From contig JBBKXB010000021.1 of assembly GCA_037969255.1 (NCBI GenBank), forward strand, positions 1-41,318: DNA of 41,318 nt. The letters are read 5' to 3'. Shown in pieces: positions 11,487 to 24,662 of this stretch. The DNA comes from Bdellovibrionales bacterium. GTDB taxonomy: Bacteria > Pseudomonadota > Alphaproteobacteria > Micavibrionales > JBBKXB01. The number at the start of each line of letters is the position of its first letter. Within the stretch, counting starts at the first letter, position 1. Position numbers and translations under genes: made by a program. Below the pieces are notes generated by a model that saw only the letters and a program-made list of their open reading frames with translations, had not been told where the DNA came from and searched no databases.

Positions 11487-11487
11487 T

Positions 11488-11501
11488 TATATTGACATAG
11501 T
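11488..11501 (+). repeat. 14-bp inverted repeat, left arm (TATATTGACATAGT), containing a sigma70 -35 box
   Basis: Exact reverse complement of 12066-12079; TTGACA at 11492 followed by GCTAATAAT and an AAGGA RBS. Confidence 0.8.
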
Positions 11502-11548
11502 ATTAATGAGCGTGCTAATAATTGGTTACAATCAAAAGGATGTAAACT

Positions 11549-11977
11549 ATGTCGACCGAAACAAGCAAGATCAATACAGTCATTGATGGTGCAGCACGAT
11601 ACTACACATCTGGTACTGGCAACCTGTCCAAAGTACCGAGTAACTTTCTGACCAACGGCGTAATAGCTGGTGTGATTAACTACGTTCTTACGGAGGCGCC
11701 TTCTGCTACAACCCAATTTACCATTGTATCATCTGGTGCTACATCTGCTATTGCATTTAGTCTTGCTATGCTATTAATAGCCCCTTCAATGATGCTCATG
11801 CTTCCTAAAGGGTTGGGAACAGCTGATCATAAAGAGCACACCAAATCAGATTTGTTGGGTAAGGGGCTTGCGTTGGCATTGCCTTTAATCGGCTCTATAG
11901 CTTGCGCCAATTATGTAGCACAAGATTTAAATTCTAGTCACGCAGCAAAACCATTACTATCAATAGTCGGTCTATAA
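11549..11977 (+). CDS. Small membrane protein, dispersed Gly/Ala family member
   Basis: Own promoter and RBS; family motif HTKSDLLGKGLALALP. Confidence 0.75.
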   Translation: MSTETSKINTVIDGAARYYTSGTGNLSKVPSNFLTNGVIAGVINYVLTEAPSATTQFTIVSSGATSAIAFSLAMLLIAPSMMLMLPKGLGTADHKEHTKSDLLGKGLALALPLIGSIACANYVAQDLNSSHAAKPLLSIVGL

Positions 11978-11978
11978 T

Positions 11979-12023
11979 TTAGTTATATTTTAATTCTCGG
12001 TTTTGCGAGGGTGACGTAGTCAT
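11979..12023 (-). other. 14-codon micro-ORF or truncated remnant (MTTSPSQNRELKYN)
   Basis: Preceded by TTGACA-N16-TATAGA and AAGGT; stops 1 nt from the stop of the convergent 11549 gene. Confidence 0.35.
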
Positions 12024-12065
12024 ACCTTATATTTTATTTAACCCTACTCTATAGCCAATTTTTCG

Positions 12066-12079
12066 ACTATGTCAATATA
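12066..12079 (-). repeat. 14-bp inverted repeat, right arm, containing a sigma70 -35 box
   Basis: ACTATGTCAATATA is the reverse complement of 11488-11501. Confidence 0.8.
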
Positions 12080-12081
12080 TT

Positions 12082-12098
12082 TTGGCATATAAATTGCA
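12082..12098 (+). promoter_or_regulatory. Sigma-54 (-24/-12) promoter
   Basis: TTGGCATATAAATTGCA with exact GG-N10-GC spacing (GG 12084-85, GC 12096-97). Confidence 0.7.
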
Positions 12099-12109
12099 CT
12101 GTATAAGAT

Positions 12110-12499
12110 ATGTTAGAAATCGCGCAATCCAACGCTATCCCTACACCTCAGAGTCAAACAAGTGACTCTAATACGTTTGCCAAGAAAACTTTTGAAAGCG
12201 TGATTGATACGGTGAACCCCCTTCATCACATACCCATTATTGGGCAATTATACCGCACAATTTCGGGCGATGAAATATCCCCACAATCAAGTTTCGCGGG
12301 TGGTTTTCTCTTTGGCGGGCCATTGGGCGCACTTGGTGCCACGGCGAGCCTTATTATTGGCGGGGTTATTGGTGATATGAGTGGGAATAATGACACGGTT
12401 CAAACGGCGTTTAATGCGCATAGTGCCAAAAATTTAGGCGGGGACGCACCCCGGCATCCCCGCATCGACATATCTGATCCATGGCGCTTTAACAGCTAA
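12110..12499 (+). CDS. Conserved hypothetical protein
   Basis: DTVNPLHHIPIIGQLYRTISGDEI...GGFLFGGPLG resembles a conserved proteobacterial hypothetical family. Confidence 0.75.
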   Translation: MLEIAQSNAIPTPQSQTSDSNTFAKKTFESVIDTVNPLHHIPIIGQLYRTISGDEISPQSSFAGGFLFGGPLGALGATASLIIGGVIGDMSGNNDTVQTAFNAHSAKNLGGDAPRHPRIDISDPWRFNS

Positions 12500-12540
12500 A
12501 TGGTCAAAGATGATTTGTACCTATACTATTTTCTAAGAAA

Positions 12541-13764
12541 TTATACGCGTAATGTATGAACCTGTGCTTCAAAACGCTTTGTTTTGCGGCGGTCACGCTT
12601 GATTGTTGGGAATGCAAGGATAATCGCACTGCCTTCATGTGTTGCTGTGTCGGCATTTTTAGATTTGCCTGTTTGCATTTTGATTTCTGCATCGCGGAAC
12701 GAGCGCTCGAATTTCACAAACCACATGAAATTAGCATTTGAACGGTCGCGCACTTCGCCATAAAACCCATCATCTAACAATGTCATGAAGTGATCGATAA
12801 GGTAGTTACGGCCAATGTTTGAACGTTTACCAACACTGCGCAAGGCTTCGATGGCTTCGCTGTTTGATGTTTCAATCGCTTCGCTCGCTTCATCACTAGA
12901 GGCAAGAAGCACTTGGATCAAAGCGCGATCGGCTTTGCGTGTACGACCTGAATAAAACCATTGATCAAAAGCAGCAATCGCGGCTTTACCATCGCGTAAA
13001 GCGCGGAAATCGTCACTTGCACGATGAGCAAAAGCGTAGGCTAAATCAGCCACACCGCTTTTTGATACGTAATCCCAAGCAGTGTTATCGCCCGATAATT
13101 TCATTTCCCATGCAACTTGAACCGGTGCACACGCAAGCTCAGCTTGCATAGAACGGTTCAAAAGGATCGCACGATCTGGATTGACCAATAATGCGCGCAC
13201 ATCCACCATTTGCATGGCGCGGATACCGCGAACAATATTAAGGGCTGTTGCCACTACATTTTGCGCGATTGGGATAAAGATGGTGTTTGATGCGTAATCT
13301 ACATCCATTTGATCAATTATATTACTCGCTTCAATGGCAATGTTATTGTCTGTGGCAAAAGCGATGTATTCACGAGCGAGGTCGCTGTGTTTAAGCATAT
13401 CCAATGCGTCATCAATGGATGAGCCTTGAACCGGTGCAAATGCATTTTCGCACAACGCGGCTAAATCGTCTGTTAAAGGAAGGCCACATTCTGGATCACC
13501 GAGTGTGATAAAACCTTCTGATGTTTCTTTGGCTTGTTTTAAAGCATCTGGGATCATGCTATCGGCAAGATCGGCTTCTAGGCTGTCTTCAAAGCTCATC
13601 ATGAGTTCGTCATCTGAAGCATCAGCATAAAAATGATTGTCAGAAGCCACAAAGCTACACATCACAGGCGCTTGCCCTTTAAATGTCATAGCTATTTTTG
13701 GCTGATTGCTTGAAAGCGCAACGGCGCTCATCATTTCATCTAGTATATTCTTGTTGTCGGACAT
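12541..13764 (-). CDS. Hypothetical protein, possibly a degenerate DUF6782-like metallopeptidase
   Basis: GGGAGAG RBS before ATG 13764; NRSMQAE...VQVAWEMK..G segment; no HExxH motif. Family call is tentative. Confidence 0.6.
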   Translation of the reverse strand: MSDNKNILDEMMSAVALSSNQPKIAMTFKGQAPVMCSFVASDNHFYADASDDELMMSFEDSLEADLADSMIPDALKQAKETSEGFITLGDPECGLPLTDDLAALCENAFAPVQGSSIDDALDMLKHSDLAREYIAFATDNNIAIEASNIIDQMDVDYASNTIFIPIAQNVVATALNIVRGIRAMQMVDVRALLVNPDRAILLNRSMQAELACAPVQVAWEMKLSGDNTAWDYVSKSGVADLAYAFAHRASDDFRALRDGKAAIAAFDQWFYSGRTRKADRALIQVLLASSDEASEAIETSNSEAIEALRSVGKRSNIGRNYLIDHFMTLLDDGFYGEVRDRSNANFMWFVKFERSFRDAEIKMQTGKSKNADTATHEGSAIILAFPTIKRDRRKTKRFEAQVHTLRV

Positions 13765-13800
13765 TTGATGTCTCTCCCTGGTACATGCGTCAATAAAACG

Positions 13801-13867
13801 GGTTCTTAAGAACCTCTTTTTCTGCGATACATTCATAATGACAAAGAATAGTTAACAAGGTGTGAAC
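13801..13867. promoter_or_regulatory. 14-bp palindrome plus CtrA-like site
   Basis: GGTTCTTAAGAACC (13801-13814, perfect palindrome); GTTAACAAGGTGTGAAC (13851-13867), i.e. TTAA-N7-TTAA with one mismatch. Confidence 0.45.
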
Positions 13868-13969
13868 AATGGCTAAAAATCCTACAATTCCTTTGATAGC
13901 CTTGGTTTTTGGGCGATTTTTATGCGCTAGCACGGATGGTTTTGCAGGCCACTTTCCTTAATCAACGCA

Positions 13970-14566
13970 TCAAGCGCTGAGCGCTTGATCTTGAACGGGC
14001 AATGTATCGGCCAATATCTCGGTTGGTTTCAACATGACAGAGCCCTTTTTATCAATCGTTGCCAGCGCTTTGAATAATTTATCACCGATCAAAAAACATC
14101 CCTCAATCTCATGGCTCGATTGAATATGAGTTGGCGTGATCAGCGCTTGCAAATTACGGCGCGTGATCAATGTTAATTCCTCGCGCAAAATTAGATCATC
14201 AACATTTTGGATGGTCAGAACGCGTCCCGCTTGACCGCGCGTGAACCCGAGATAGAAAAATAAATAATCACATATATTGGTCTTATTCAGGTCTAAACCC
14301 GCTTTTTGAACCAATGTTTCGACCACATCCCCACCATATTCGCAAAGGGAGACATCATTATCGATATCAATAATGTAGTGACGCTTTTGTGAAAGATCAT
14401 CTTCATCGATAATTTCGGCCAGACTTGACGACTTCTTAAAAAAATCTAATTTCCAAGAAAGGCCTTTCCATTTGGCTTTTTCAAGACCTGCTTTTTTGGC
14501 CCAATCTTGCGCCGCGCGTGTCTTGAGTAGGTCTGCGTCGCATTGGAGCGCTAGAGGAGGTGTCAT
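13970..14566 (-). CDS. Hypothetical protein (198 aa) flanking the origin
   Basis: AAGGA RBS, clean ORF, no recognised motif. Confidence 0.7.
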   Translation of the reverse strand: MTPPLALQCDADLLKTRAAQDWAKKAGLEKAKWKGLSWKLDFFKKSSSLAEIIDEDDLSQKRHYIIDIDNDVSLCEYGGDVVETLVQKAGLDLNKTNICDYLFFYLGFTRGQAGRVLTIQNVDDLILREELTLITRRNLQALITPTHIQSSHEIEGCFLIGDKLFKALATIDKKGSVMLKPTEILADTLPVQDQALSA

Positions 14567-14943
14567 CGATATGTCCTTTTGTCGGTTTCATTTAAGAATA
14601 TGATCTTAGGGGCGCTATCGGGGATGAAGCGCGTTTCGCATAGGATCAACTCTGTGGACAATCATGGGGGAAAATACTTATCCACCCAAGCCTTTTTTCA
14701 CCCCCACCTTATCCCCATGTGTAAAACTTGGAATCTGTATTGGGCATAGAGTCTAAAGAATCAATTTTTTCAAAGCCCTTAAATATGAAATAGCAGACTC
14801 ATAGATCTGGGGATAAGGAGTCAGTGCACGTGATTCATATAGATCAATTACAACAATAAATACAGATTAAGACTCTTCATTAAATTAAGATTACTCATCC
14901 CTCTTTTCAAACCGACCTAACTCGTGTCAGTGTCCTAACCAAC
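14567..14943. other. Candidate chromosomal replication origin (oriC)
   Basis: Intergenic region upstream of hemE, the usual alphaproteobacterial position. DnaA-box variants: TGTGGACAA 14653, TTATCCACC 14678, TTATCCCCA 14709, TGGGGATAA 14808. Seven GANTC sites between 14731 and 14875, and an AT-rich stretch at ~14840-14895. Confidence 0.8.
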
Positions 14944-15933
14944 ATGAACAACAAAACTTTATCGCATAAAAATATTAACAATTCCTTAATGGGTCAAAAA
15001 CCTATTTGGCTTATGCGACAAGCGGGACGCTATTTGCCTGAATACATGGACATCCGTCAAAAAATAGGTGGGTTTGTTGATCTTTGTATGAACCCTGATA
15101 TGGCATCCGAAGTGACCTTGCAACCCATAAAACGCTTTGATTTTGATGCTGCGATTATCTTTTCTGATATCTTGATGATCCCTTATGCATTGGGTCAAAA
15201 ACTATGGTTTGAAACGGGTGAAGGGCCACGACTTGGTGATCTTAATTGGCATGAATTTGACGCTCAAAAACTTCAACCCGTATACGATGCCATCACACTG
15301 ACCCGTCAAAATTTAGACGATGAAAAATCATTAATAGGCTTTGCGGGTGCGCCTTGGACATTACTACTTTATACCTTGCAAGGACGCGGTGGTAATGACT
15401 TTGTAACCGCACGTTCCATGGTTTATAATGATCTTGAAAATGCTAAAAAACTTTTAAAAATCTTAGAACAATCGGTGATTGAGCATTTGTCTAATCAGAT
15501 AAAAGCGGGCGCCGATGTGGTTCAAATATTTGATAGCTGGGCGGGTCTATGCCCTGCACAATTGCAAAATGATTTCTTGATTGACCCCGTTAAGAATATC
15601 GTTAGCGCGCTTAAAAAACTGCATCCTGATGTGACCATTATTGCGTTTCCAAAGGGCTATAAAGACCTTAATCAATACACAAAAATTATTGGCAATGATG
15701 TGGTCGGGATTGATCAGTTTTCGCATCTTACATGGGTTGATAAAGATATTGCGACCCAAGGCAATCTTGATCCGCTGGTTCTTATTCAAGGTGGTGATGT
15801 TTTAGAAAAAGCGGTTCTATCAATCTTAGAGAAAACAGAAAACCGCGCCCATATTTTCAATCTTGGTCATGGCATTGATAAAACAACGCCCATCGCCCAC
15901 GTCGAACAACTTGTAAGATTTGTAAAAGGGTAA
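14944..15933 (+). CDS. hemE: Uroporphyrinogen decarboxylase
   Basis: PIWLMRQAGRYLPEY, LIGFAGAPWTL, HIFNLGHGI. Confidence 0.98.
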   Translation: MNNKTLSHKNINNSLMGQKPIWLMRQAGRYLPEYMDIRQKIGGFVDLCMNPDMASEVTLQPIKRFDFDAAIIFSDILMIPYALGQKLWFETGEGPRLGDLNWHEFDAQKLQPVYDAITLTRQNLDDEKSLIGFAGAPWTLLLYTLQGRGGNDFVTARSMVYNDLENAKKLLKILEQSVIEHLSNQIKAGADVVQIFDSWAGLCPAQLQNDFLIDPVKNIVSALKKLHPDVTIIAFPKGYKDLNQYTKIIGNDVVGIDQFSHLTWVDKDIATQGNLDPLVLIQGGDVLEKAVLSILEKTENRAHIFNLGHGIDKTTPIAHVEQLVRFVKG

Positions 15934-15934
15934 T

Positions 15935-16378
15935 TTAAGAAGGAGTACAGTTAGAATATCGAATTGCATTTCCTTTCATATTTGTACAATCTAAAACGCC
16001 AGATTCAAGAACTACAGGCTGTACTTTGTGTTGTTCAGGCAGTTGAGTTGAAATAGCCATTATTGTTGCAGCAGCACCAATCAGATATGATCCGGATGTT
16101 GTAAATGGTTTACCTGATTCCACAGCAACAACAGTAGCAGCAACAACAGTAGCAGCAGCACCAATAATAGCAACACCCAAAAGAGCAGCACCAGTAACAA
16201 CAGTAGCACCACCAGGACCAATAGCAGCACTAATAGCAGCATAAGCACCAATAGCCTTATAAACAGCACCAGCACTAATAGTAGCACCAATAATAGTACC
16301 ACATAACCCACTGCCAACAACAGCCATCAGTAATTTCTTAGTACCGTTATCTTCAAATCCAGTTGTGATTTCACTCAT
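15935..16378 (-). CDS. Small glycine-zipper membrane protein with C-terminal Cys pair, dispersed family member
   Basis: Promoter, AAAGGA RBS and ATG; long Gly/Ala/Ile/Val tract; ends ..DC...SNCTPS. Confidence 0.75.
   Translation of the reverse strand: MSEITTGFEDNGTKKLLMAVVGSGLCGTIIGATISAGAVYKAIGAYAAISAAIGPGGATVVTGAALLGVAIIGAAATVVAATVVAVESGKPFTTSGSYLIGAAATIMAISTQLPEQHKVQPVVLESGVLDCTNMKGNAIRYSNCTPS
16122..16327 (-). repeat. Low-complexity trinucleotide tract (GCT/GGT/GTT/ATT/ACT codons)
   Basis: Nearly all codons of the minus-strand ORF in this stretch end in T and start with a purine. Confidence 0.8.
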
Positions 16379-16411
16379 TATAATTTCCTTTGTTTAATAA
16401 ATATTTAAAAC

Positions 16412-16440
16412 AGACTACATAGTTGTTTTTAATATGTCAA
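16412..16440 (-). promoter_or_regulatory. Sigma70-type promoter of the 15935-16378 gene
   Basis: TTGACA-tattaaaaacaactatg(17)-TAGTCT. Confidence 0.7.
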
Positions 16441-16487
16441 TACATATTTTATGACAGTGATGTTATTTATTGTTAAAAATATAACCC

Positions 16488-17522
16488 ATGAAAACAGCGG
16501 TCATATTATTTAATCTTGGTGGACCTGATAGCGCCTCATCTATTAAACCGTTTTTGAAAAACTTCTTTATGGACAAAGCCATTATTCCCGCGCCGCGCCC
16601 GTTTCGTGATGTGATATCGAGCCTGATTGCCAATAAACGATCCCGCGCAGAGGCTGGTCAGAGCTATGGCGAGATAGGTGGAGCATCACCACTCCTTAAA
16701 AACACGAACGCACAAGCGGACGCGCTTCAAATAACCCTTGGTGATGATTTTAAAACCTTTACGTGCATGCGCTATTGGCATCCCATGGCAAAAGATGTTG
16801 TGGGGCAGGTCAAAGACTACAACCCAGAGCGCATCATTTTATTACCCCTTTACCCACAACTTTCAACAACCACCACCAGCTCGAGCTACAAAGAGTGGAT
16901 GAAACATGCTAAAAAAACGGGTCTAAAATCACAAACTTTGGCGTGCTGTTATCCAACGAATGAAGGCTTTATAACAGCCAGCGCGGATAACATAAAATTG
17001 AAATATAACGAAATGGTCAAAAATGGTCAAACACCGCGCGTGTTATTTTCCGCCCACGGTGTGCCGTTATTTGTGCTTAAACGCGGTGATCCGTATCAAT
17101 GGCAATGCACACAAACCGCCCATGCCATTGTTAAAAAACTAAGCATCAAGGATTTAGATTGGGCAGAATGTTATCAATCACGCGTGGGGCCAACCAAATG
17201 GACAACGCCGTCCGTTGAGGACGAACTGAAACGCGCCGCCAGTGATAAAACGCCCGTGCTTTTATACCCCCATGCGTTTGTGAGTGAGCATGTGGAAACG
17301 CTTGTCGAGCTCGATATTGAATATAAAGACATGGCCGAAGGTTTGGGTATCAAAGGATATGAGCGCGCGCAAACCGTGTCGACCCATCCCGATTTTATCG
17401 CAGGGTTAAAAAAGATTGTTCTAAACGCTTTAAAGGACGATAATAACATCCAAGGCGCTGGTAAAAATGGACAATCTATATGCCCACCACAATTCACCGC
17501 CTGCGCGTGTCGAAATAATTAG
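16488..17522 (+). CDS. hemH: Ferrochelatase (Cys-rich C-terminus, probable [2Fe-2S] type)
   Basis: LFNLGGP, MRYWHP, LPLYPQ, LFSAHG, YQSRVGP, FVSEHVETLVELD; C-terminal Cx6CxC. Confidence 0.97.
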   Translation: MKTAVILFNLGGPDSASSIKPFLKNFFMDKAIIPAPRPFRDVISSLIANKRSRAEAGQSYGEIGGASPLLKNTNAQADALQITLGDDFKTFTCMRYWHPMAKDVVGQVKDYNPERIILLPLYPQLSTTTTSSSYKEWMKHAKKTGLKSQTLACCYPTNEGFITASADNIKLKYNEMVKNGQTPRVLFSAHGVPLFVLKRGDPYQWQCTQTAHAIVKKLSIKDLDWAECYQSRVGPTKWTTPSVEDELKRAASDKTPVLLYPHAFVSEHVETLVELDIEYKDMAEGLGIKGYERAQTVSTHPDFIAGLKKIVLNALKDDNNIQGAGKNGQSICPPQFTACACRNN

Positions 17523-18017
17523 TTATTTTGGAACACAACTCTTAGGCACAAATACAGTGCGTGACCCATCGGGATTTTTTGTGATGACAGGTTTATTTTC
17601 CGATGAAGCGCATTTAAAATTAAGACGAGCATCATGCGCTATTGGCGGTGAAACAATAGGCTTTGGATTATTTAATTCGTGTTGATAGGCCACATAACCA
17701 GCCGTTAACGGCAGCCCTAAACCAACAGCAACCCCAAATAATTGGCTTATTTTATGTTTTTTTCGATCTACATTTCCACCAACAGCGCCACCAACAACAG
17801 CACCAAGAGCAAGAGCCCCAACAGCCCCAAGAGCAAGAGCCCCAAGAGCACCACCACCAACAACAGCCCCAAGAGCACTAACAGCACCAACAGCCCCAAG
17901 AGCACCAACACCAAGAGCACCAACAACAACAGCCCCAAGAGCACCAATAGCACCAACAGCACTACCACCAACAGCATCAGCAGCAGTTGAGATTCTATCT
18001 TTTAAAATTTGTTCCAT
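17523..18017 (-). CDS. Small glycine-zipper membrane protein with C-terminal Cys pair, dispersed family member
   Basis: AAAGGA RBS; MEQILKDRIST, (GA[LV])n tract, HKISQLFGVAVGLGLP motif; ends KC...KSCVPK. Confidence 0.78.
   Translation of the reverse strand: MEQILKDRISTAADAVGGSAVGAIGALGAVVVGALGVGALGAVGAVSALGAVVGGGALGALALGAVGALALGAVVGGAVGGNVDRKKHKISQLFGVAVGLGLPLTAGYVAYQHELNNPKPIVSPPIAHDARLNFKCASSENKPVITKNPDGSRTVFVPKSCVPK
17777..17986 (-). repeat. Degenerate tandem repeat encoding (G-A-[LVI])n
   Basis: Recurrent ccccaagagc / accaacagc units; the + strand has only about 4 T in ~210 nt. Confidence 0.88.
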
Positions 18018-18047
18018 ATTAATAATCCTTTTTATTTTAATAATGCC

Positions 18048-18076
18048 AACTCAGCACAATATTTACAATATGTCAA
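18048..18076 (-). promoter_or_regulatory. Sigma70-type promoter of the 17523-18017 gene
   Basis: TTGACA-tattgtaaatattgtgc(17)-TGAGTT; the -10 box is weak. Confidence 0.55.
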
Positions 18077-18122
18077 TAATTATTATGTCGCAGAGTTGCT
18101 GTTTTTGGCTATTATGCTTGTC

Positions 18123-18551
18123 ATGACTTTTTACCTTATTTTAAAAGCCCTACACATTATCGCCGTGATTTCATGGATGGCTGGAATGCTTTATTTGCCG
18201 CGCTTGTTTGTGTATCACATGGAGGCTAAATCAAAGGAGACACGCGAGACGTTCAAAACGATGGAGCGCCGTTTGTATAAATACATTATGACCCCTGCCA
18301 TGATTGGGACGTGGCTTCTTGGCATAACGTTACTCGCACAACAACCGTATTATATGACCCAAGGGTGGATGCACGCCAAATTATTATTGGTATTACTAAT
18401 GAGCGGTGCACATGGTTATATGGGCGGCTGCGTCCGAAAATTTGCTAGCGATGCCAACACAAAATCATCAAAATTTTACCGTTACCTCAATGAAGTCCCA
18501 ACGCTTTTGATGATCGTTATTGTATTCTTGGTGATCTTAAAAGGGTTTTGA
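18123..18551 (+). CDS. hemJ: Protoporphyrinogen IX oxidase HemJ
   Basis: KALHIIAVISWMAGMLYLPRLFVYH, MERRLY, WMHAKL, NEVPT. Start moved from TTG 18009 to ATG 18123. Confidence 0.96.
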   Translation: MTFYLILKALHIIAVISWMAGMLYLPRLFVYHMEAKSKETRETFKTMERRLYKYIMTPAMIGTWLLGITLLAQQPYYMTQGWMHAKLLLVLLMSGAHGYMGGCVRKFASDANTKSSKFYRYLNEVPTLLMIVIVFLVILKGF

Positions 18552-18923
18552 TATAGGAGCGGGGGCAGAAGAAGCAGTTGATATCCTCATAGTATTATGA
18601 TTTTTATCAATACTACCTAATGTTATTGGTGTTCCTAGTCCCGCAATGACAGCCATTAACGTTATTGCTTTATGAGTTCCAAATCTCGTATTAGCACCGG
18701 CACTTATTTGTTTATTGGGCATCCAATTACCTTGTTCGGTTCTATGAGCAATGACTGTTTTTGGAGATGAATTGTAAGCCCAAATCATACCAGAAAGACA
18801 AATTATAATTCCACCAGCCAAAGCTCCCATATTAGACCCATCCAGAAAAAGCCCTGCCAAGCCACTTAACGCGAAAGCACCGCTTCCAGTCGAAATTCTA
18901 TTTTTTGTTACTTGTTTCATCAT
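18537..18923 (-). CDS. Small membrane protein, dispersed family member
   Basis: AGAGGA RBS; MKQVTKNRIST and HKAITLMAVIAGLGTP motifs; overlaps the hemJ end by 15 nt. Confidence 0.75.
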   Translation of the reverse strand: MMKQVTKNRISTGSGAFALSGLAGLFLDGSNMGALAGGIIICLSGMIWAYNSSPKTVIAHRTEQGNWMPNKQISAGANTRFGTHKAITLMAVIAGLGTPITLGSIDKNHNTMRISTASSAPAPISKPF

Positions 18924-18941
18924 GATATCCTCTTTAATTTT

Positions 18942-19247
18942 TTAAGGCGTTAAAACACCAGCGCCTGTCATAACGGGCAATGCAAGGCCTGTTAATCCGC
19001 CCAATGTTACAGCCAGTGCATGTGAAGCTAGATTTTTAGACTCTCCACTTGAGCTTAACCCGACCGAGTTTTTTGCAAAAGCACCGCCGAACATTATTAA
19101 AACCATTCCAACCACCGCAGCACCTGTTCTTGCGGCACCTTCAAAAGCTATAGGCGTAATTAGAAGCGCAGCAATAGCTCCTATAGCCAGCCCTAGTGAC
19201 ATAGTATTAAAATGATTGCTGGTTCTTTTAATGATACTTTTATTCAT
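18942..19247 (-). CDS. Small membrane protein, dispersed family member
   Basis: AAGGGGG RBS before ATG 19247; three hydrophobic segments; HALAVTLGGLTGLALP motif. Confidence 0.75.
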   Translation of the reverse strand: MNKSIIKRTSNHFNTMSLGLAIGAIAALLITPIAFEGAARTGAAVVGMVLIMFGGAFAKNSVGLSSSGESKNLASHALAVTLGGLTGLALPVMTGAGVLTP

Positions 19248-19275
19248 GGTAGCCCCCTTGATCTTTGACACCAAT

Positions 19276-19304
19276 TTAATAACAACCTTATTTTAATATG
19301 TCAA
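19276..19304 (-). promoter_or_regulatory. Sigma70-type promoter of the 19247/18923 gene pair
   Basis: TTGACA-tattaaaataaggttgt(17)-TATTAA. Confidence 0.65.
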
Positions 19305-19319
19305 CGCCATTCTGCCCTC

Positions 19320-19348
19320 TTGACAGAGTATGCTAAAAAGCCCTAAAT
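19320..19348 (+). promoter_or_regulatory. Candidate rho promoter
   Basis: TTGACA-N17-CTAAAT, back-to-back with the minus-strand promoter. Confidence 0.5.
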
Positions 19349-19456
19349 GGCGTTATTCCCATCAATCCTGATCAGGATAACCCTCTCCCAGCCAGACCTT
19401 TTTATTCTTAAAAGATGGCTCAACACATCACAAAACCATAGTAAATTATCACCCTT

Positions 19457-20713
19457 ATGAATTTAAAAGACCTCAAAGCCCACAAACCTAACGAACTCAT
19501 TGAACTTGCTGAAGAGCTAGAGATTGAGAACATACCCTCCCTTCGTAAACAAGAATTGATGCTCGCCATCCTTAAGCAAATGGCCGATGACGGCGAAGTG
19601 TTGCATGGTGGCGGTGTGATCGAAGTCCTTCAAGACGGATTTGGATTTTTACGTTCTGCTGAGGAAAACTATCTTCCAGGGCCCGACGATATTTACATGG
19701 CACCCGCCCAAGTTAAGAAATTTGGCCTACGCACAGGCGACACAGTCGAGGGCGAGATCCGCGCTCCCAAAGACAATGAACGCTATTTCGCGATGCTTAA
19801 CATTGAAAGCATCAACCATGATGAGCCTGAAAAACTGCGCCATCGCATTAACTTTGATAATTTAACGCCGCTTTATCCCGATCGTAAGATCAAGCTTGAG
19901 CTAGACGATAAAACAAAAGACGACAACACACAGCGCGTGATTGAACTTGTGACACCGCTTGGTTTTGGTCAACGTGCATTGATTGTTGCCCCGCCACGCG
20001 TGGGTAAAACAGTGATGCTCCAAAACATCGCGCATTCAATCTCTGCCAATCATCCCGAAGCCTATTTGATGGTATTGCTTATCGATGAACGCCCCGAAGA
20101 AGTGACCGACATGGATCGCTCTGTGAAGGGTGAAGTGGTTAGCTCAACATTTGATGAACCCGCGACACGCCACGTACAAGTGGCCGAAATGGTGATCGAA
20201 AAAGCAAAACGTCTTGTCGAGGCCAAACGCGATGTCGTGATTTTGCTTGATAACATCACGCGTCTTGCGCGCGCTTATAACACTGTTGTGCCATCATCGG
20301 GTAAAGTGCTTACGGGTGGTGTGGATGCCAACGCTTTGCAACGTCCAAAACGTTTCTTTGGTGCGGCGCGTAATGTTGAACAAGGCGGATCGTTGACCAT
20401 TATTTCAACATCCTTAATTGATACAGGCTCTCGCATGGATGAAGTGATCTTTGAAGAGTTCAAAGGAACGGGTAATGCCGAGATCGTGCTTGATCGTAAA
20501 ATCGCTGATAAACGTGTGTTCCCAGCCATTGACGTTCAAAAATCAGGAACTCGTAAAGAAGAATTGCTTGTCGATAAAGCCACATTGCAAAAAATGTGGA
20601 TATTGCGCCGTATCTTGAACCCAATGGGGACTGTGGATGCGATGGAATTCTTGCTTGGAAAACTTAAAGACACCAAATGCAATAATGACTTCTTTAATGG
20701 GATGAACCAGTAA
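19457..20713 (+). CDS. rho: Transcription termination factor Rho
   Basis: [45 protein letters not shown]. Confidence 0.99.
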
Positions 20714-20724
20714 AACTGATTGCT

Positions 20725-21051
20725 TTACAGCCCTAAAGTTTTAGCCGAGATGGTTAAATTTTCTGCTGGAGTGAGCTCAGGACTATGAAGCGTTGCCCCC
20801 GTAAGAGCCGCAGCAGTGGCTGCTGTAACAAAGGCAGTTTTAACAGCATCCAATTTGCGTCCAACAGCAAAAGTGCCTACAGCGCCAGCTAAATTCAATA
20901 CATATGATACAGCTTCGTGACCTGGACTTTCGATCCCGTCAGCCGCCATGTAAGACCTCATAACGAAACCTACTGCGCACATTATGCCAAAAGCAGTTCC
21001 TGCTAGACCGGCGCCTATAATTTTCCCTACATTTGATTGCGAATGATTCAT
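20725..21051 (-). CDS. Small Gly/Ala-rich membrane protein, probable dispersed family member
   Basis: AGGAG RBS before ATG 21051; three hydrophobic segments; family-type promoter. Confidence 0.72.
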   Translation of the reverse strand: MNHSQSNVGKIIGAGLAGTAFGIMCAVGFVMRSYMAADGIESPGHEAVSYVLNLAGAVGTFAVGRKLDAVKTAFVTAATAAALTGATLHSPELTPAENLTISAKTLGL

Positions 21052-21074
21052 AGCTATTCTCCTGATTAACAAAC

Positions 21075-21102
21075 AGTATACATTATTTTAACATTATGTC
21101 AA
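21075..21102 (-). promoter_or_regulatory. Sigma70-type promoter overlapping the last codons of the upstream gene
   Basis: TTGACA-taatgttaaaataatg(16)-TATACT; TTG ACA TAA is Leu-Thr-stop of the 21094 gene. Confidence 0.65.
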
Positions 21103-22557
21103 TAAATTATATCCATATACTGATCCTGCAATTACAATCATCACCGCAATTTCCCATCCCAAGCGTGGACGCGGTGTGTAGGTGAATTTATGGGATCGTG
21201 CGAACTGCATTTTACCAAAGATTATAATGCCGTGGAACACGATGATGCCTAAGATTGCGCCCACTAATGCCCCAATGATACCGCCGATAAACCATGATAA
21301 TCCCAGCGTCACGATGACACTGAGCGCCCATGCGAGGATGCGTTCTTTTCTGGTTTGTGCGATGATTTTGGAACGCGCTTTGGTTAATACTTCTTTGCGT
21401 GTACGCTCTGATAAACCAATTGGATATTTTTTGGCGACGATATAATTGGCCTTTTTAATCCCGTAATGGAGCACGTTTTCAAGCGCTTCATTGTATAAAC
21501 GTTTTGCATTATCGCTATATTTATCAAGGAATGTTGGGCAATGATTGATGCGCCCTTTGCGCCCCGCGGCTGTGACATCAAACGCCGCTTTGTCTTTGAC
21601 TTTGACGATGGTTTCGCACCATGGAATATCGCTCTCAATGCGGTAATAGAGGCTATTTGGATTGCCCTTAATCGTGCGTCTTGTTTCGTCCTCGGACGTG
21701 TCAGGTGGACTGGTCATGGGTTTGCCTATGACACTCATGGGTAAGTGTCCTTTTTTGGCCAAAACGCCAATGGCCGCAACGCCCAATAAATGGGATACGG
21801 CTCTGGGGGGTTCCGCGCTCATACGATGTGCCTGTACGCGCCATGCGAATGATAGACCCATCACATATTCTTTTTCACCCGATCCACCACACTCACGGCA
21901 ATGGCTGTGTCCCGTGCCATTACAAGGCTGACAACTTGTGACGCCATGTCCATCACACCGCAGACAACGCGTACGTCCATCGCCACCGCACCACGTACAC
22001 AAGGGGTCACTTAGATTGCCTTCGCCGCTGTGTCCCTTACCGCGACATTGTCCGCACCACTCTGTGCGCTCGCCTCGACATTGCGGACATACAGATTGCC
22101 CTTTGCCATGACATACAGGGCACCCGCCTTTGCCTTTGCCACTGCACGCATTGCATGGATCCTTATAGCCAAAATTGTAATGAAGCCCCGTGATGGGATA
22201 AATAGGTCTATCACCCTCTAGCCCCATGGCAGAGCGCTTTAATATTGTGCCTTCAATCACCGCCATGGCCTCAGGGCTTGTCATCAATCCTTCGGCTGCA
22301 CGTTCAATTTCCTCGGTCATTTCGGCTTTCGAGCCATAAATATGCGTTTTTTGATCTTTGGATTTCGTTGGTTTATCGTCTTGGTCAATGATTAAGCTCA
22401 GCTCAAGCAGGCTTTCGAGCTTAAATTTACCCGTTTCTTCACATACGAATTCAATGTCTTGCTTGGTGATCCCGTTGCCTTTGCTGACATAGGCAATCCC
22501 GCTCATAATTTTACGAGCTAGCGGTGATGCATTTTTGGGATAAGTATTTTCCATCAC
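21094..22557 (-). CDS. DnaJ-type zinc-finger (8x CxxCxGxG) membrane protein lacking a J-domain
   Basis: Eight CxxCxG motifs, no HPD motif, three C-terminal hydrophobic segments. Confidence 0.8.
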   Translation of the reverse strand: MMENTYPKNASPLARKIMSGIAYVSKGNGITKQDIEFVCEETGKFKLESLLELSLIIDQDDKPTKSKDQKTHIYGSKAEMTEEIERAAEGLMTSPEAMAVIEGTILKRSAMGLEGDRPIYPITGLHYNFGYKDPCNACSGKGKGGCPVCHGKGQSVCPQCRGERTEWCGQCRGKGHSGEGNLSDPLCTWCGGDGRTRCLRCDGHGVTSCQPCNGTGHSHCRECGGSGEKEYVMGLSFAWRVQAHRMSAEPPRAVSHLLGVAAIGVLAKKGHLPMSVIGKPMTSPPDTSEDETRRTIKGNPNSLYYRIESDIPWCETIVKVKDKAAFDVTAAGRKGRINHCPTFLDKYSDNAKRLYNEALENVLHYGIKKANYIVAKKYPIGLSERTRKEVLTKARSKIIAQTRKERILAWALSVIVTLGLSWFIGGIIGALVGAILGIIVFHGIIIFGKMQFARSHKFTYTPRPRLGWEIAVMIVIAGSVYGYNLLT

Positions 22558-22688
22558 TTAGGGCTTAATGCGTTTCATTCTTGCAATATGTCATTAAAAA
22601 ATATATACCTTTCAATATATTAAGATTATTATTTAATCTATAGACGCCTATTTTGTCAAAACAAGTCAACACGTACGAGGATAAAGTC

Positions 22689-22901
22689 ATGAAAGTCACG
22701 ATTAATATAGATTGTACGCCCGAAGAAGCTCGTTCTTTTATGGGTTTGCCAGATGTTACCGCCATAAATGAAGCGATGGTAAAAAAAATGACAGAACAAA
22801 TGAGTGAGATGAGTCCTGATAAAATGATGGCACTTTGGGGTGATCAGATGTCAAAAATGACCAATATGTGGACCAATCAGTCTAATAAGGGTAACAAGTA
22901 A
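22689..22901 (+). CDS. DUF6489-like small protein
   Basis: MKVTINIDCTPEEARSFMGLPDV signature; GAGGA RBS. Confidence 0.8.
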   Translation: MKVTINIDCTPEEARSFMGLPDVTAINEAMVKKMTEQMSEMSPDKMMALWGDQMSKMTNMWTNQSNKGNK

Positions 22902-22902
22902 T

Positions 22903-24198
22903 TTGGATACGATTTATGCCATAGCCTCTGGCGCTGCGCCTGCTGGCATCGCAATTGTCCGCGTGTCTGGGCCTCTTGCACTGGATAGTTTGCGCAATCT
23001 AACGGACGGCGAACCGCTTCCGCAACCGCGCAGTGCCACATTGTTTCACGTGAAACATCCCAAAACGAACAAACATATTGATAGCGCCATAGCGCTCACG
23101 TTCCCGCAACCCAACTCGTATACGGGCGAAGACGTGGTGGAATACCATGTACATGGCGGTAAAGCCATCATTGATAGCTTGCTCAATGCGTTGTCCAGCC
23201 AAGATCGCCATCGCCCAGCCGAAGCAGGGGAATTCACAAAACGCGCGGTGCTTAACGGCCGTATGGATCTCACGCAAGCCGAGGCCGTGCATGATCTTAT
23301 TATGGCTGAAACTGAGGCTCAACGTGATCAAGCGCTGGCGCAACACCATGGCGCGTTGGCACGTTTATACGATGGATGGCGTACCGAGCTCACACGTTCG
23401 CTTGCTTATATCGAGGCATATCTGGACTTTCCCGATGAAGCGTTGCCCGAAGACTTGCTTGAAACTGTAAAACCATCAATTGAAGATATTTTATCGGGGC
23501 TAGAGGCGCATTTGAGCGATCCTAATTTAGGGGAACGCCTTCGTGAAGGCTTCCGCGTGGTGATAGCGGGTGCACCTAATGCAGGAAAGTCGACGCTGTT
23601 AAACGCCCTCACAAAACGCGAAGTGGCGATTGTGTCTTCTAAAGCGGGCACGACGCGTGATATTTTGGAAGTTCCGCTTAATTTGGGCGGTTTTCCCGTA
23701 CTTTTGACCGACACCGCGGGTATTCACGATCAATCGGATGATGATATCGAAATTGAAGGCATTCGCCGCGCCAAAGCCAAACTACAAGAGGCGGATATTC
23801 GCATACTCTTACTTGATCCGACGCAGGCCGTATCTGCGCAAATCGAGGATGCCGACATCACCGCGTGGACAAAAGCCGATATTGAAAAATCTCCCCCAGG
23901 GGCGCTCCCAATATCGGCTGAAACGGGTCAAGGATTGCCAGAGTTAATCAATGAAATTGTTGCGCAATTAAAGACACGTACCAATAAACGTCAAGGTCTT
24001 GGGCCTACACGGGCGCGCCATCGCCGCGCTCTCGAACAAGCATTGTTTCACGTGAAACAATCGCTTAACGCGCAATTGCCTGAGTTACTGGCCGAAGACA
24101 TCCGTCTGGCCTCGCGTGCTTTGGGCGAAATCACAGGGCGCGTTCACGTTGAGGACTTGCTTGATGTAATTTTCCGTGACTTTTGCATCGGCAAATAA
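22903..24198 (+). CDS. mnmE: tRNA modification GTPase MnmE
   Basis: DTIYAIASG, SYTGEDVVE..HGG, GAPNAGKSTL, GTTRD, DTAG, FCIGK. Confidence 0.98.
   Translation: MDTIYAIASGAAPAGIAIVRVSGPLALDSLRNLTDGEPLPQPRSATLFHVKHPKTNKHIDSAIALTFPQPNSYTGEDVVEYHVHGGKAIIDSLLNALSSQDRHRPAEAGEFTKRAVLNGRMDLTQAEAVHDLIMAETEAQRDQALAQHHGALARLYDGWRTELTRSLAYIEAYLDFPDEALPEDLLETVKPSIEDILSGLEAHLSDPNLGERLREGFRVVIAGAPNAGKSTLLNALTKREVAIVSSKAGTTRDILEVPLNLGGFPVLLTDTAGIHDQSDDDIEIEGIRRAKAKLQEADIRILLLDPTQAVSAQIEDADITAWTKADIEKSPPGALPISAETGQGLPELINEIVAQLKTRTNKRQGLGPTRARHRRALEQALFHVKQSLNAQLPELLAEDIRLASRALGEITGRVHVEDLLDVIFRDFCIGK
23042..23057. promoter_or_regulatory. parS site 1 (inside mnmE)
   Basis: Perfect TGTTTCACGTGAAACA. Confidence 0.92.
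24044..24059. promoter_or_regulatory. parS site 2 (inside mnmE)
   Basis: Perfect TGTTTCACGTGAAACA. Confidence 0.92.
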
Positions 24199-24200
24199 TT

Positions 24201-24557
24201 TTATTTAATATTAAGCGCCATAGTTGCTATAGCTATGGCTGTTGCGGGCCCACCAATGAGCATACTAGTTTTTACACTAGCTTCAGAATATCCACCTAAG
24301 TTTGAGATGGCCATATTGCGGCTGCCTTTAGCAAGCGCTCCTGAAATAACTGCAATTATGCCTAACGCAATTGTTCCATTATTTATTCCAGATTCCGCCG
24401 CTTTAAATACAGTGGCTCCAGAGTGGAAAAGGCAAACGCCCAGAAACAGGCTTGCTAAAAATTGTTGTGCATGACCAAAGAATCGCGGTGCTTGAGTAAC
24501 AATATCATCAAACTCTTTATCAATATTTCTTGGGGTACGAGTATCAAATTCAACCAT
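24201..24557 (-). CDS. Small membrane protein between mnmE and mnmG, probable dispersed family member
   Basis: AAGGA RBS; TTGATA-N17-CATAAT promoter at 24611-24639; three hydrophobic segments; SMLIGGPATAIAIAT resembles SYLIGAAATIMAIST of the 15935 gene. Confidence 0.72.
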   Translation of the reverse strand: MVEFDTRTPRNIDKEFDDIVTQAPRFFGHAQQFLASLFLGVCLFHSGATVFKAAESGINNGTIALGIIAVISGALAKGSRNMAISNLGGYSEASVKTSMLIGGPATAIAIATMALNIK

Positions 24558-24662
24558 TTTCTGTCCTTAAATCCTTATTGTTTGGTTAGATAATATTGCG
24601 GAGATAAGAGATTATGAAGAAATTAGTGACTTTTATCAATGATAAAGGTATATGATCTTATT

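Follow-up and report, generated by a model that had tools for sequence, protein, structure and literature searches.

Orphan genes for small Gly/Ala-rich proteins in the junctions of an alphaproteobacterial core gene block: candidate moron-like cassettes

Introduction

How do small genes without detectable relatives come to lie between the core genes of a reduced bacterial chromosome, and what might their products do? The question is raised by the window, the 41,318-nucleotide stretch of DNA analysed here. Its backbone comprises hemE, hemH, hemJ, rho, mnmE, mnmG, rsmG, parA and parB, with the conserved block order hemE-hemH-hemJ-rho-(p487)-mnmE-mnmG, and it is likely near the origin. A first-pass annotation had picked out seven small open reading frames among these genes and had read them as a repeatedly duplicated, lineage-specific arsenal of toxins, effectors or immunity proteins.

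Results

Seven small open reading frames

All seven reading frames are present with the coordinates and strands first given for them, and each is the longest frame in its place. They are A (11549-11977, plus strand, 142 aa) and, on the minus strand, B (15935-16378, 147 aa), C (17523-18017, 164 aa), D (18537-18923, 128 aa), E (18942-19274 as listed), F (20725-21072 as listed) and G (24201-24557, 118 aa). For E, ATG 19247 is the more likely start, giving 101 aa, because it has a GGGGG Shine-Dalgarno site and agrees with the 101-aa form from the profile search; for F, ATG 21051 is more likely, giving 108 aa, because an AGGAGA site lies upstream. A Shine-Dalgarno site is visible 5′ of every start (7/7), in keeping with the good ribosome-binding sites ascribed to the genes. 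Judged by codon use, the seven are real-looking genes, with in-frame codon log-odds of 0.044-0.189 that are positive and the best of six frames in all seven cases, and with scores that all exceed the 95th percentile of wrong frames (-0.055). The scores of A, B, D, E and F fall below the 5th percentile of real-gene segments (0.124), and some of these genes could therefore be very young or non-functional. The genes do cluster: five of the seven (B, C, D, E and G) are among the ten open reading frames in the genome that pass a filter of 80-200 aa, at least two hydrophobic segments and a G+A fraction of at least 0.22, thresholds that were picked after the proteins had been seen.

The genes had been called visibly more AT-rich than their neighbours. 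This does not hold for whole genes, with a GC content of 0.39-0.46 against 0.442 for the window, but it does at third codon positions, where GC3 is 0.13-0.35, compared with 0.41-0.42 in 519 long genes. The pooled GC3 of the seven, 0.25, is below that of long genes (0.41) and of EF-Tu, EF-G and ribosomal genes (0.35), and ATA accounts for 0.33 of Ile codons in the seven but for only 0.01 of those in highly expressed genes. Low GC3 and the use of ATA suggest a composition that is foreign or young.

Position and expression signals

Six of the genes lie antisense in backbone junctions, as had been noted, and fill them nearly to the base. Gene B occupies the hemE-hemH junction (15934-16487, 554 nt), with the hemE stop at 15933 and its own at 15935; imperfect 15/18-nt tandem repeats at 16122-16211 encode its Ala/Gly/Val/Thr-rich core. 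Gene C lies in a 608-nt hemH-hemJ insert (17514-18121), with the hemH stop at 17522 and its own at 17523, and a repeat array at 17777-17985, with units of 9-66 nt, encodes about 65 residues of G/A/V/L. The hemJ-rho promoter insert (18554-19313, 760 nt) holds a two-gene unit, E then D, 18 nt apart. The 3′ end of D overlaps the end of hemJ by 15 nt, and its final five codons and stop fall outside the insert, within the hemJ 3′ end. Gene F lies in the rho-p487 interval (20716-21093), and gene G in a 463-nt mnmE-mnmG insert (24200-24662) that spans from the mnmE stop to the likely true mnmG start, ATG 24663; these units, like those of B to E, are on the minus strand. Unit A (11485-12082, plus strand) contains gene A with its promoter box and is bracketed by a 17-nt inverted repeat with arms at 11485-11501 and 12066-12082.

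The claim that each gene or pair has its own promoter is supported by sequence for A, B, C, E and F; for G there is a weaker site only. TTGACA boxes, with 16-17 nt spacers and -10-like hexamers, lie 5′ of those five genes. The extended -35 box TATTGACATA is common to the upstream regions of A (11490-11499), B (16433-16442), C (18069-18078) and F, and the corresponding box of E is GTTGACATAT. The 10-mer TATTGACATA has 34 copies in the 1.41 Mb genome, five of them within 11.4-21.1 kb of the window. The E promoter (-35 at 19304-19299, -10 at 19281-19276) stands back to back with the rho -35 box (19320-19325), and that of F, TTGACA (21102-21097), 16 nt and TATACT (21080-21075), overlaps the last codons of the conserved p487. 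Gene G does not have the common TATTGACATA box and is preceded by a promoter-like site, TTGATA-17-CATAAT, at 24639-24611. Taken as a class, promoter-like sites do not exceed chance expectation in the region (32 against 30.6).

Terminator-like sites are absent from the 3′ ends of B, C, D and F; the only one close to a gene end falls within the 3′ portion of G (24233-24217), and such sites as a class are again in no excess over chance (18 against 15.7 expected). The 3′ ends of all seven are met by convergent transcription, from a core gene for six and from an inverted promoter copy for A, where the downstream arm of the repeat is part of a minus-strand promoter-like site (12075-12046) pointing into the 3′ end of the gene. 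The promoter motif of A also recurs, at 88% identity and on the plus strand, within the 5′ coding part of E (19193-19209). With no terminators and convergent 3′ ends, cassette and host transcripts would have to overlap in antisense, which probably limits cassette expression. Neither a transposase nor an integrase had been visible, and none occurs among the 32 larger open reading frames of the window (E <= 1e-5); the window also contains no tRNA and no match to an Rfam family.

Empty junctions in relatives

The first-pass annotation had suggested looking for empty forms of these junctions in sister genomes. Those of C, D+E and G are closed in relatives; empty forms of A, B and F were not seen. 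A metagenome contig of a relative (L023; hemH 84% identical in amino acids, rho region 85.5% in nucleotides) was compared with the window by blastn. At the hemH-hemJ junction it has 16 nt in place of the window's 608, with C absent, and at hemJ-rho 3 nt in place of 763, with D and E absent; hemH and hemJ of L023 are coupled and overlap. Among contigs of the window's own sample (X1), one joins 18553 to 19314, skipping 760 nt with four other letters between, and another joins 24199 to 24663, skipping 463 nt, and with them G, with 14 other letters between. These joints, in two Logan contigs, came from matching at 90% likeness, and their shorter sides measure 30 and 38 letters. The tool warns that other organisms are a frequent source of joints that fall below 95% likeness or have a side shorter than 30 letters, and we read the joined contigs as those of a related organism, not of the same strain.

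The wider order gives a similar picture. Median junction lengths are 16, 35 and 279 nt for hemE-hemH, hemH-hemJ and hemJ-rho (129-160 related loci) and 152 nt for mnmE-mnmG (40 loci). The hemE-hemH junction reaches at least 300 nt in 4 of 160 related loci and the hemH-hemJ gap is shorter than 300 nt in 118 of 146; at none of 113 loci are all three of hemE-hemH, hemH-hemJ and hemJ-rho at least 300 nt long, as all three are in the window. The filled form of B recurs in a 1423-nt Logan contig that bridges hemE-B-hemH with seven differences, one of them K135T in B. For C there is a length variant with an in-frame insertion behind 17895 which, being of 15 nt, keeps the reading frame.

The inserts have their edges 9 nt beyond the -35 box of E and, where they meet core genes, at the stop codon or within it. 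The units have no terminal sequences in common and no terminal repeats, and there is no further DNA copy of them in the genome. The closed junctions of relatives therefore point to C, D+E and G as recent insertions, the direction of change being drawn from a single metagenome contig, the two joined Logan contigs and outgroups at the level of the order. On this sequence comparison, C, D+E and G are minimal promoter-to-stop insertions, polymorphic between relatives; for B, insertion between neighbours that are adjacent elsewhere is suggested at the level of the order only.

Orphan status and kinship

The genes had been taken as lineage-specific. Indeed, a profile search of 1.84 billion representatives recovered nothing beyond the proteins of the window itself, and the same was true when D, G and B served as queries in word-based searches of 5.8 billion proteins, with G alone among all of them. 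None of A-G falls into a Pfam, NCBIfam, PADLOC or PHROG family, and tblastn of D against 50,697 phage records found no match. Of 301 genomes of the order, three gave a match to F at E <= 0.01: its own genome and two at chance level (about 0.007). A candidate kinship with the type IV secretion pilins VirB2/TrbC was rejected: the genome, 96.9% complete, contains no match to PF04956 (TrbC; E <= 1) or to PF03135 (VirB4; E <= 0.01).

Pairwise motifs had been said to link six of the seven. Only two pairs score above composition-preserving shuffles. For A-C, z is 6.5 against global shuffles and 6.2 against local ones, and phmmer gives E 0.0074 in a set of 6283 open reading frames; for C-D, the two z values are 8.5 and 6.4. 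Both exceed all of 400 random pairs of the genome's other small hydrophobic open reading frames, none of which reached z 5. The D-E pair is marginal (z 3.5 and 2.8), and B, F and G are unlinked. Full-length leave-one-out profiles recover none of A, C, D and E, and block profiles recover C alone (E 1.2e-5). A, C, D and E have in common a basic loop and last helix with the motif H-x10-[AG]-L-[AG]-[LT]-P-[LIV], a four-way motif defined after the fact. The single duplicated family of seven thus shrinks to A, C and D, which appear to be fast-diverging paralogues, with E possibly a fourth. B, F and G fall outside it: what they have in common with the rest is composition, architecture and, G excepted, promoter type, and we regard them as apparently unrelated orphans of similar build.

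Predicted membrane placement

The proteins had been likened to glycine zippers. GxxxGxxxG occurs once in C and once in D and is missing from A, B, E, F and G, and spacing between glycines in the seven shows no enrichment at 4. The two to four hydrophobic segments ascribed to each protein stand in part, several being only weakly hydrophobic in a Kyte-Doolittle scan. The cores of B and C are almost purely G/A/V/L/I/T, and their C-terminal tails have two Cys each. N-termini are polar and mostly basic, none of them signal-peptide-like by eye. From the crude hydropathy scan and low-confidence AF2 models (pLDDT 51 and 50; C among those modelled), which carry both topology and retention, we infer that the products may stay in the producer's own inner membrane, with a basic loop preceding the last helix and the C-terminal tail, with its Cys pair in B and C, predicted to lie outside.

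Discussion

We favour, as an even call, the reading of A-G as recently acquired, self-contained accessory gene cassettes in the core chromosome that resemble phage morons. Each unit would consist of a sigma-70-type promoter, a short Shine-Dalgarno leader and one open reading frame (two in E-D) up to its stop, and would have been spliced by illegitimate recombination into origin-proximal hemE-mnmG junctions of an uncultured Micavibrio-like alphaproteobacterium, no more than a few bases from start and stop codons of essential genes; the products would act as dispensable accessory proteins in the inner membrane. Morons are described as having their own promoter and deviant GC, and moron gene 15 of HK97 as encoding gp15, a small inner-membrane exclusion protein (PMC3594210). 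The units are similar to these in being extra transcription units between genes that are adjacent in relatives (C, D+E and G), in having a promoter of their own, as read from sequence, and in a composition unlike that of their neighbours, here in GC3 and not in whole-gene GC; a moron product, too, can be a small inner-membrane protein. They differ in that morons have a terminator, whereas none was found for the cassettes, in that they sit beside the likely origin in the core chromosome and not in a prophage, with no PHROG match, and in that they run antisense to the host operon.

As to what the products might do, a protective or self-acting role (immunity, exclusion or envelope-modulating) would be the likeliest, at about one chance in three, by analogy with moron-encoded inner-membrane proteins. 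Immunity proteins for pore-forming colicins have 110-180 aa and three to four inner-membrane helices, and their genes, often orphans, lie on the other strand from the adjacent operon, with a constitutive promoter of their own. The genes of the window are similar in size, predicted membrane helices, own promoter, opposite strand and orphan occurrence; they differ in that no colicin or toxin gene is near A-G and there is no sequence or profile match.

If the moron-like reading is correct, the locus would offer a clean natural case of small membrane-protein genes entering a reduced bacterial genome as minimal units near essential-gene ends, still polymorphic between co-occurring relatives. It would also hold a new family of a few proteins (A, C, D and perhaps E) whose motif is defined and which could be assayed for activity on membranes, and the TATTGACATA box would mark many other orphan genes of the Micavibrio-like lineage. 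An unlikely extension of it is that the units are undescribed transposase-less mini-cassettes, each a promoter with a small fast-evolving membrane-protein gene, which circulate in the lineage's accessory pool and colonise operon junctions beside the origin. Antisense insertion would then couple transcription of the cassette to that of the flanking essential gene and could yield addictive or self-silencing 'chromosomal morons', and orphan genes behind TATTGACATA boxes genome-wide could be further members.

The earlier idea of a glycine-zipper arsenal, Cdz- or microcin-like, exported into target membranes and possibly with immunity partners, would bear on predator-prey biology, but nothing here shows such an arsenal. 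Micavibrio is a genus of predatory bacteria, and kinship to it lends the idea some appeal, as does the rapid turnover of the genes, which fits conflict genes. The nearly pure G/A/V/L/I/T cores of B and C recall the alphaproteobacterial CdzC and CdzD of Caulobacter, whose mature forms are given as 75% Gly and small hydrophobic residues (PMC5380434), and E-D could be a two-peptide or a toxin and immunity pair. Five of the seven, however, do not have the extended zipper, and at 101-164 aa all exceed CdzC (86 aa), CdzD (84 aa) and the reported Cdz size of about 5-10 kDa (PMC5380434). No sequence likeness to these was detectable in the libraries searched, nor does any bacteriocin or leader family appear in Pfam or NCBIfam at E <= 1. 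Neither cdzAB-type secretion genes nor a cdzI-type immunity gene adjoins A-G; the genome does have a type I secretion operon, but the only one found is on another contig, C96, where it adjoins the gene for a giant repeat protein. Single genes make up five of the six units, and a lone, exported, self-toxic pore former would presumably be hard to maintain. We consider an arsenal of this kind quite unlikely. Addiction of the type I toxin-antitoxin sort, with a self-harmful membrane protein checked by antisense RNA from essential-gene read-through or, for A, from the inverted promoter copy, seems rather improbable as well. The ibs/sib, ldr/rdl and z3289/z3290 pairs are described as intergenic, strain-variable and multi-copy, without mobility genes, the yehI-yehL spacer with z3289/z3290 being 0.3 kb or 1.2 kb by strain (PMC2887945). 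The units are likewise intergenic, hydrophobic in product, repeated nearby, variable between relatives and free of a transposase, and antisense transcription is possible at their unterminated, convergent 3′ ends, through the site at 12075-12046 aimed into A, and from the motif copy at 19193-19209 within E. Type I toxins, though, are given as under 60-70 aa with one transmembrane helix (PMC2887945); A-G are two- to fivefold longer, most of them have at least two hydrophobic stretches, they match no Rfam family, and their strong promoters and Shine-Dalgarno sites suggest proteins meant to be made.

Two further readings were weighed. The units could be functionless young DNA, insertions or repeat expansions with chance open frames (proto-genes), and the apparent family a compositional convergence. 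Low coding scores for A, B, D, E and F, very low GC3, the short imperfect tandem repeats behind the B and C cores, a D C-terminus whose last codons come from antisense hemJ sequence beyond the insert edge, the empty homology searches and the failing leave-one-out profiles would all fit. We nevertheless find this improbable: seven frames of 101-164 codons with Shine-Dalgarno site and start, six of them with a near-consensus promoter, would be unlikely to arise by chance, in every case the annotated frame outscores the other five, the A-C and C-D likeness survives local shuffling and stands above every control pair, the C length variant preserves the frame, and about 3 kb of junk between essential genes is unlikely in a 1.4 Mb genome whose relatives have median junctions of 16-35 nt. 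Alternatively, the genes might be ancestral, positional and very fast-evolving, lost from the compared relatives instead of gained here. Six other lineages of the order do have antisense hemH-hemJ open reading frames of 103-190 aa with two to three hydrophobic segments, and L023 has after rho a 123-aa open reading frame with two hydrophobic stretches, different from F and unrelated to it. These analogues are unrelated to the window's small open reading frames (the seven and one further frame, X, described below), however, with z below 4 in 56 of 56 comparisons (best 3.9), and z exceeds 3 in none of the 21 pairs among the analogues themselves. Most loci also have a short hemH-hemJ gap, and deletion would need to restore the L023 hemH/hemJ overlap exactly; we hold ancestry to be highly unlikely.

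Just downstream of unit A, and outside the list of the first-pass annotation, lies a further orphan open reading frame, X (12110-12499, plus strand, 129 aa), with two true GxxxGxxxG motifs and a promoter-like site of its own, TTGGCA-16-TAAGAT. Its likeness to C and to D is marginal (z 3.4 and 2.3, local shuffles).

Genomic context of the small genes

The window is one entire contig (C21) of a genome that comprises 1,414,171 bases in 105 contigs and is 96.9% complete; a GTDB-based genome set contains no other member of its family or genus. Because the nearest named records are MAGs labelled Micavibrio sp. or Alphaproteobacteria bacterium, with HemH proteins 51–60% identical, we treated the source as an uncultured Micavibrio-like alphaproteobacterium. 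Searches of Pfam and NCBIfam confirmed the backbone genes hemE, hemH, hemJ, rho, mnmE, mnmG, rsmG, parA and parB, and their order is conserved order-wide. Between rho and mnmE lie a DUF6489 gene and p487 (21094–22557, minus strand), which encodes a conserved Cys-rich membrane protein of 487 residues in which CxxC/CxxCxGxG-like repeats are numerous and the C-terminal part is hydrophobic. The protein matches no Pfam family above the cut-off and is kept beside rho across the order at 20–25% identity.

The description of this region as origin-proximal is plausible, because four DnaA-box-like sites, with one mismatch each, cluster at 14653–14816 just upstream of hemE. They fall in the AT-rich 377-nt spacer that separates hemE from the ORF p198, and this spacer is the likely replication origin. 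DnaA-box-like sites are also enriched over the window as a whole, with 23 found against 11.5 expected. The interior of mnmE carries two identical 19-nt copies of CATTGTTTCACGTGAAACA, at 23039–23057 and 24041–24059 (1002 nt apart), whose core is perfectly palindromic. Two backbone starts look to have been listed too far out: ATG 24663 is the probable start of mnmG, judged by the start in relatives and by a contig with an empty junction, and ATG 18114 (MTFYL...), not TTG 18009, is probable for hemJ.

Small genes fill backbone junctions

The seven small orphan ORFs all lie where the first-pass annotation had placed them, at 11549 on the plus strand (A) and at 15935, 17523, 18537, 18942, 20725 and 24201 on the minus strand (B to G). 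They occupy the junctions nearly to the base: the 3′ ends of B and G lie 1 nt beyond hemE and 2 nt beyond mnmE, respectively, that of C abuts hemH, and D shares 15 nt with the end of hemJ. Each is the longest frame at its position and has a Shine-Dalgarno site. From the placement of these sites, the start of E is most likely ATG 19247, giving 101 residues, a form also present in a protein library, and that of F ATG 21051, giving 108 residues.

With a codon model trained on 519 long genes of the genome, the in-frame score was positive and the best of six frames for all seven ORFs (0.044–0.189 per codon), exceeding the 95th percentile of wrong frames (−0.055); the scores of A, B, D, E and F lie below the 5th percentile of real-gene segments (0.124). 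Third-position GC is 0.13–0.35, compared with 0.41–0.42 in long genes, and the pooled value of 0.25 is below the 0.35 of EF-Tu, EF-G and ribosomal genes. ATA accounts for 0.33 of isoleucine codons in the seven and 0.01 in the highly expressed set. We take the low third-position GC as a sign of foreign or young DNA with a general AT bias at these positions, rather than of translational selection. The genes had been called visibly AT-rich, which is true only of their third positions and promoters; whole-gene GC, at 0.39–0.46, is no different from the window's 0.442.

Short, imperfect tandem repeats make up the cores of B and C. In a contig from the same sample, C gains an extra repeat of 15 nt at window position 17895, with the frame kept, and another carries K135T in the tail of B (window 15975), a form found separately in a large protein collection. 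As same-sample contigs bridge hemE, B and hemH with 7 differences, and hemH and C with 2, the filled junctions are not an artefact of MAG assembly.

Empty junctions in relatives and in the same sample

Looking for empty junctions in relatives, as the first-pass annotation had proposed, showed that L023, a metagenome contig of 3.3 kb, lacks the C and D/E units, and that contigs from the window's own sample skip D/E and G. L023 is the closest relative found, with HemH 84% identical and the rho region 85.5% identical in DNA, and it aligns to window positions 16540–17513, 18122–18551 and 19315–20715. It has 16 nt in place of the 608-nt C unit and 3 nt in place of the 763 nt that contain D and E, and in this contig hemH and hemJ are coupled by an overlap. 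Its similarity to the window in DNA ends at the rho stop codon, and directly after rho, at the position of F, it carries a different ORF of 123 residues with two hydrophobic stretches (L023:2824–3195, minus strand).

Among Logan contigs from the sediment sample containing the window, one passes from 18553 directly to 19314, omitting 760 nt and showing 4 other letters at the joint, and one connects 24199 with 24663, omitting 463 nt and showing 14 letters at the joint. These joints were found at 90% likeness and have sides of 30 and 38 letters, in a setting where joints below 95% or with sides under 30 often belong to other organisms. Read depth was 6.6–7.7 over D/E versus 13.9–15.2 over the first two rho bins. 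We read the skipping contigs as a co-occurring relative with empty junctions, probably not the same strain.

In related loci, the hemE–hemH gap has a median of 16 nt in 160 loci and reaches 300 nt in 4 (window, 554 nt); the hemH–hemJ gap, a median of 35 nt in 146 loci, reaching 300 nt in 28 (window, 591 nt); the hemJ–rho gap, a median of 279 nt in 129 loci, reaching 300 nt in 53 (window, 905 nt); and the mnmE–mnmG gap, a median of 152 nt in 40 loci, reaching 300 nt in 16 (window, 440 nt). None of the 113 loci in which the first three gaps could all be measured has at least 300 nt in all three: 55 have no such junction, 46 have one and 12 have two. No empty form of A, B or F was seen, and the view of B as an insertion rests on these order-level gap sizes. 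F had no match in 300 other genomes of the order.

Six other lineages of the order carry, in hemH–hemJ, an antisense ORF of 103–190 residues with two or three hydrophobic segments (L109:9033–9446, L120:9076–9597, L121:9050–9361, L157:9869–10441, L162:9062–9412 and L163:8999–9406). A Cys pair ends two of the six; none has a Pfam family or resembles another or the window genes. Insertions seem to land in this junction repeatedly.

Insert edges and the origin of the units

The insert edges match functional edges. hemH takes its final three codons and stop from the C insert, and D is completed by five codons and a stop beyond its own insert, in hemJ antisense. The edge of the D/E insert stands 9 nt outside the −35 box of E, itself back to back with the conserved −35 box of rho. 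Comparison of the edges revealed no common terminal sequence, terminal repeat, direct repeat or target duplication. The units carry no visible mobility gene, as had been observed, and no tRNA gene either, and the genome has no other DNA copy of them. Such edges look like the product of illegitimate recombination, with selection having retained only events that spared the core genes. D and C are only 28% identical; hence, if D/E was gained since the divergence from a relative whose identity, over the aligned pieces, is 90% or more, D cannot be a recent in-place copy of C. The simplest source would be an unsampled pool of such units.

Relationships among the small proteins

The seven ORFs had been proposed to form one family. 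By alignment they do not: the proposal is mostly wrong, since only A–C and C–D exceed shuffled controls. In Smith-Waterman comparisons against 300 global shuffles and 300 local shuffles (12-residue block), A–C gave z-scores of 6.5 and 6.2 and C–D 8.5 and 6.4, and no other pairs were singled out. Marginal values came from D–E (3.5 and 2.8) and from pairs with X, an additional small orphan ORF beside A (X–C, 5.3 and 3.4; X–D, 3.7 and 2.3), and all pairs with B, F or G were at chance once local composition was preserved. Among 400 control pairs, drawn at random from the genome's other small hydrophobic ORFs, 8 reached z ≥ 3 and none reached z ≥ 5. A phmmer search with C against 6283 ORFs of the genome ranked D first (E = 0.0047) and A second (E = 0.0074) after C itself.

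In A, C, D and E, a basic loop and, after it, the pattern H-x10-[AG]-L-[AG]-[LT]-P-[LIV] align without gaps. The pattern occurs in no other ORF of the genome and is absent from all 11,781 ORFs of 180 related loci; this exclusivity is weak evidence, as the pattern was defined after seeing the four. A block profile of A, D and E recovers C (E = 1.2e-5) and the other three leave-one-out block profiles fail; with full-length profiles, the left-out member fell outside the top 10 in four of four runs. True paralogy with C is, on these alignments, highly probable for A and D, about an even call for E and improbable for B, F and G. Kinship of B and C through their Cys-pair tails was rejected (z = −0.99), the two being alike only in a 50-nt upstream stretch (70%), as was homology of F to MotA, its sole match being 31 residues within one MotA helix.

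Protein features and possible role

The N-terminus of each protein is polar, and that of C, D and E is also basic. Two to four stretches are hydrophobic, some weakly and some strongly. In A, C and D, and less markedly in E, a basic loop comes before the last helix; the tails of B and C each contain two cysteines. Canonical glycine zippers are scarce: C and D have a single GxxxGxxxG each, and the other five have none. Neither A–G nor X matched Pfam, NCBIfam, PADLOC or PHROGs, queries of the ESM Atlas with D and C gave no usable match, and tblastn of D against phage records gave none. AF2 modelled C and B as low-confidence helices (mean pLDDT 51 for C from a 4-row alignment, 50 for B from a single sequence); only the tail of C, residues 131–164, reaches 72–84, as a small β-sheet. 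Foldseek against the PDB returned nothing at E ≤ 0.001.

From these features, we favour products that would stay in the producer's inner membrane: no signal-peptide-like N-terminus was seen on reading the small proteins, the genome is without a type IV secretion system, and the one type I secretion operon found serves another substrate. This operon (contig C96:36–7063) encodes a TolC-like protein, a 773-residue ABC transporter and an HlyD-like adaptor; it lies after the giant repeat protein that it serves, which is truncated at the end of the contig. An 'AVGG' in C prompted a search for a double-glycine microcin leader; no family matched, and the only C39-like match, at 19.3 bits, is a sub-threshold domain of the transporter in that adhesin-type operon. 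A VirB2-like pilin was also rejected, given the lack of a type IV system.

By analogy with moron-encoded small membrane proteins (PMC3594210), we favour a self-acting accessory role for the products; colicin immunity proteins are a second analogue. The rival readings are an exported toxin, a type I-like self-toxin and a functionless young gene. The toxin reading of the first-pass annotation is unsupported. Functionless young genes would suit the third-position bias, and have to be set beside codon scores that single out the annotated frame in every case.

The protein sequences are new, relatives being absent from the sets searched, and the kind of element is already known in outline: type I loci and morons are likewise strain-variable, self-promoted genes for small hydrophobic proteins in intergenic spacers. 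What is unusual is that six units sit within one conserved 13-kb core block next to the likely origin, that five of them, with six of the seven genes, are antisense, that two are polymorphic within one sample and that all lack a mobility signature. The literature on small or glycine-zipper proteins of Micavibrio and on Micavibrionales yielded no paper on such genes in this order. The first-pass observation was largely right, and the case for insertion is stronger than its reader could have told from the sequence alone.

The orphan island and a shared promoter element

X (12110–12499, plus strand; 129 residues) is an eighth orphan small protein, the sole one of the eight with two clear GxxxGxxxG motifs, and has a promoter-like site to itself. 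Inside its 3′ end, at 12463–12438 on the minus strand, lies a GC-rich hairpin resembling a terminator, presumably that of the convergent gene p431. Just before A, at 10126–11486 on the plus strand, are two ORFs of 276 and 176 residues without a Pfam family. As A, X and these two ORFs had no match in 180 related loci, the stretch at 10.1–12.5 kb is an island of four orphan genes.

The 3′ ends of six units face a convergent core gene, and a scan found no terminator in any unit. A is flanked by a 17-nt inverted repeat, the downstream arm of which lies within a promoter-like site aimed back into A. Promoter-like sites as a class do not exceed chance in the region (32 found, 30.6 expected). The extended −35 box TATTGACATA precedes A, B, C and F. 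A version with one mismatch stands before E and a looser one before p487, and G, which lacks the box, has only TTGATA-17-CATAAT upstream. This 10-mer occurs 34 times in the genome, five of them between 11.4 and 21.1 kb of the window (11490, 12068, 16433, 18069 and 21095). Elsewhere it lies mostly upstream of orphans: 15 of 20 proteins tested, from 27 downstream ORFs of at least 60 residues outside the window contig, had no Pfam family (E ≤ 0.001). Several of the downstream ORFs encode small proteins that have a pair of hydrophobic segments. For 10 of the 34 copies, the start of the best downstream ORF lies 27–29 nt past TATTGACATA, a spacing that would give leaderless mRNAs.
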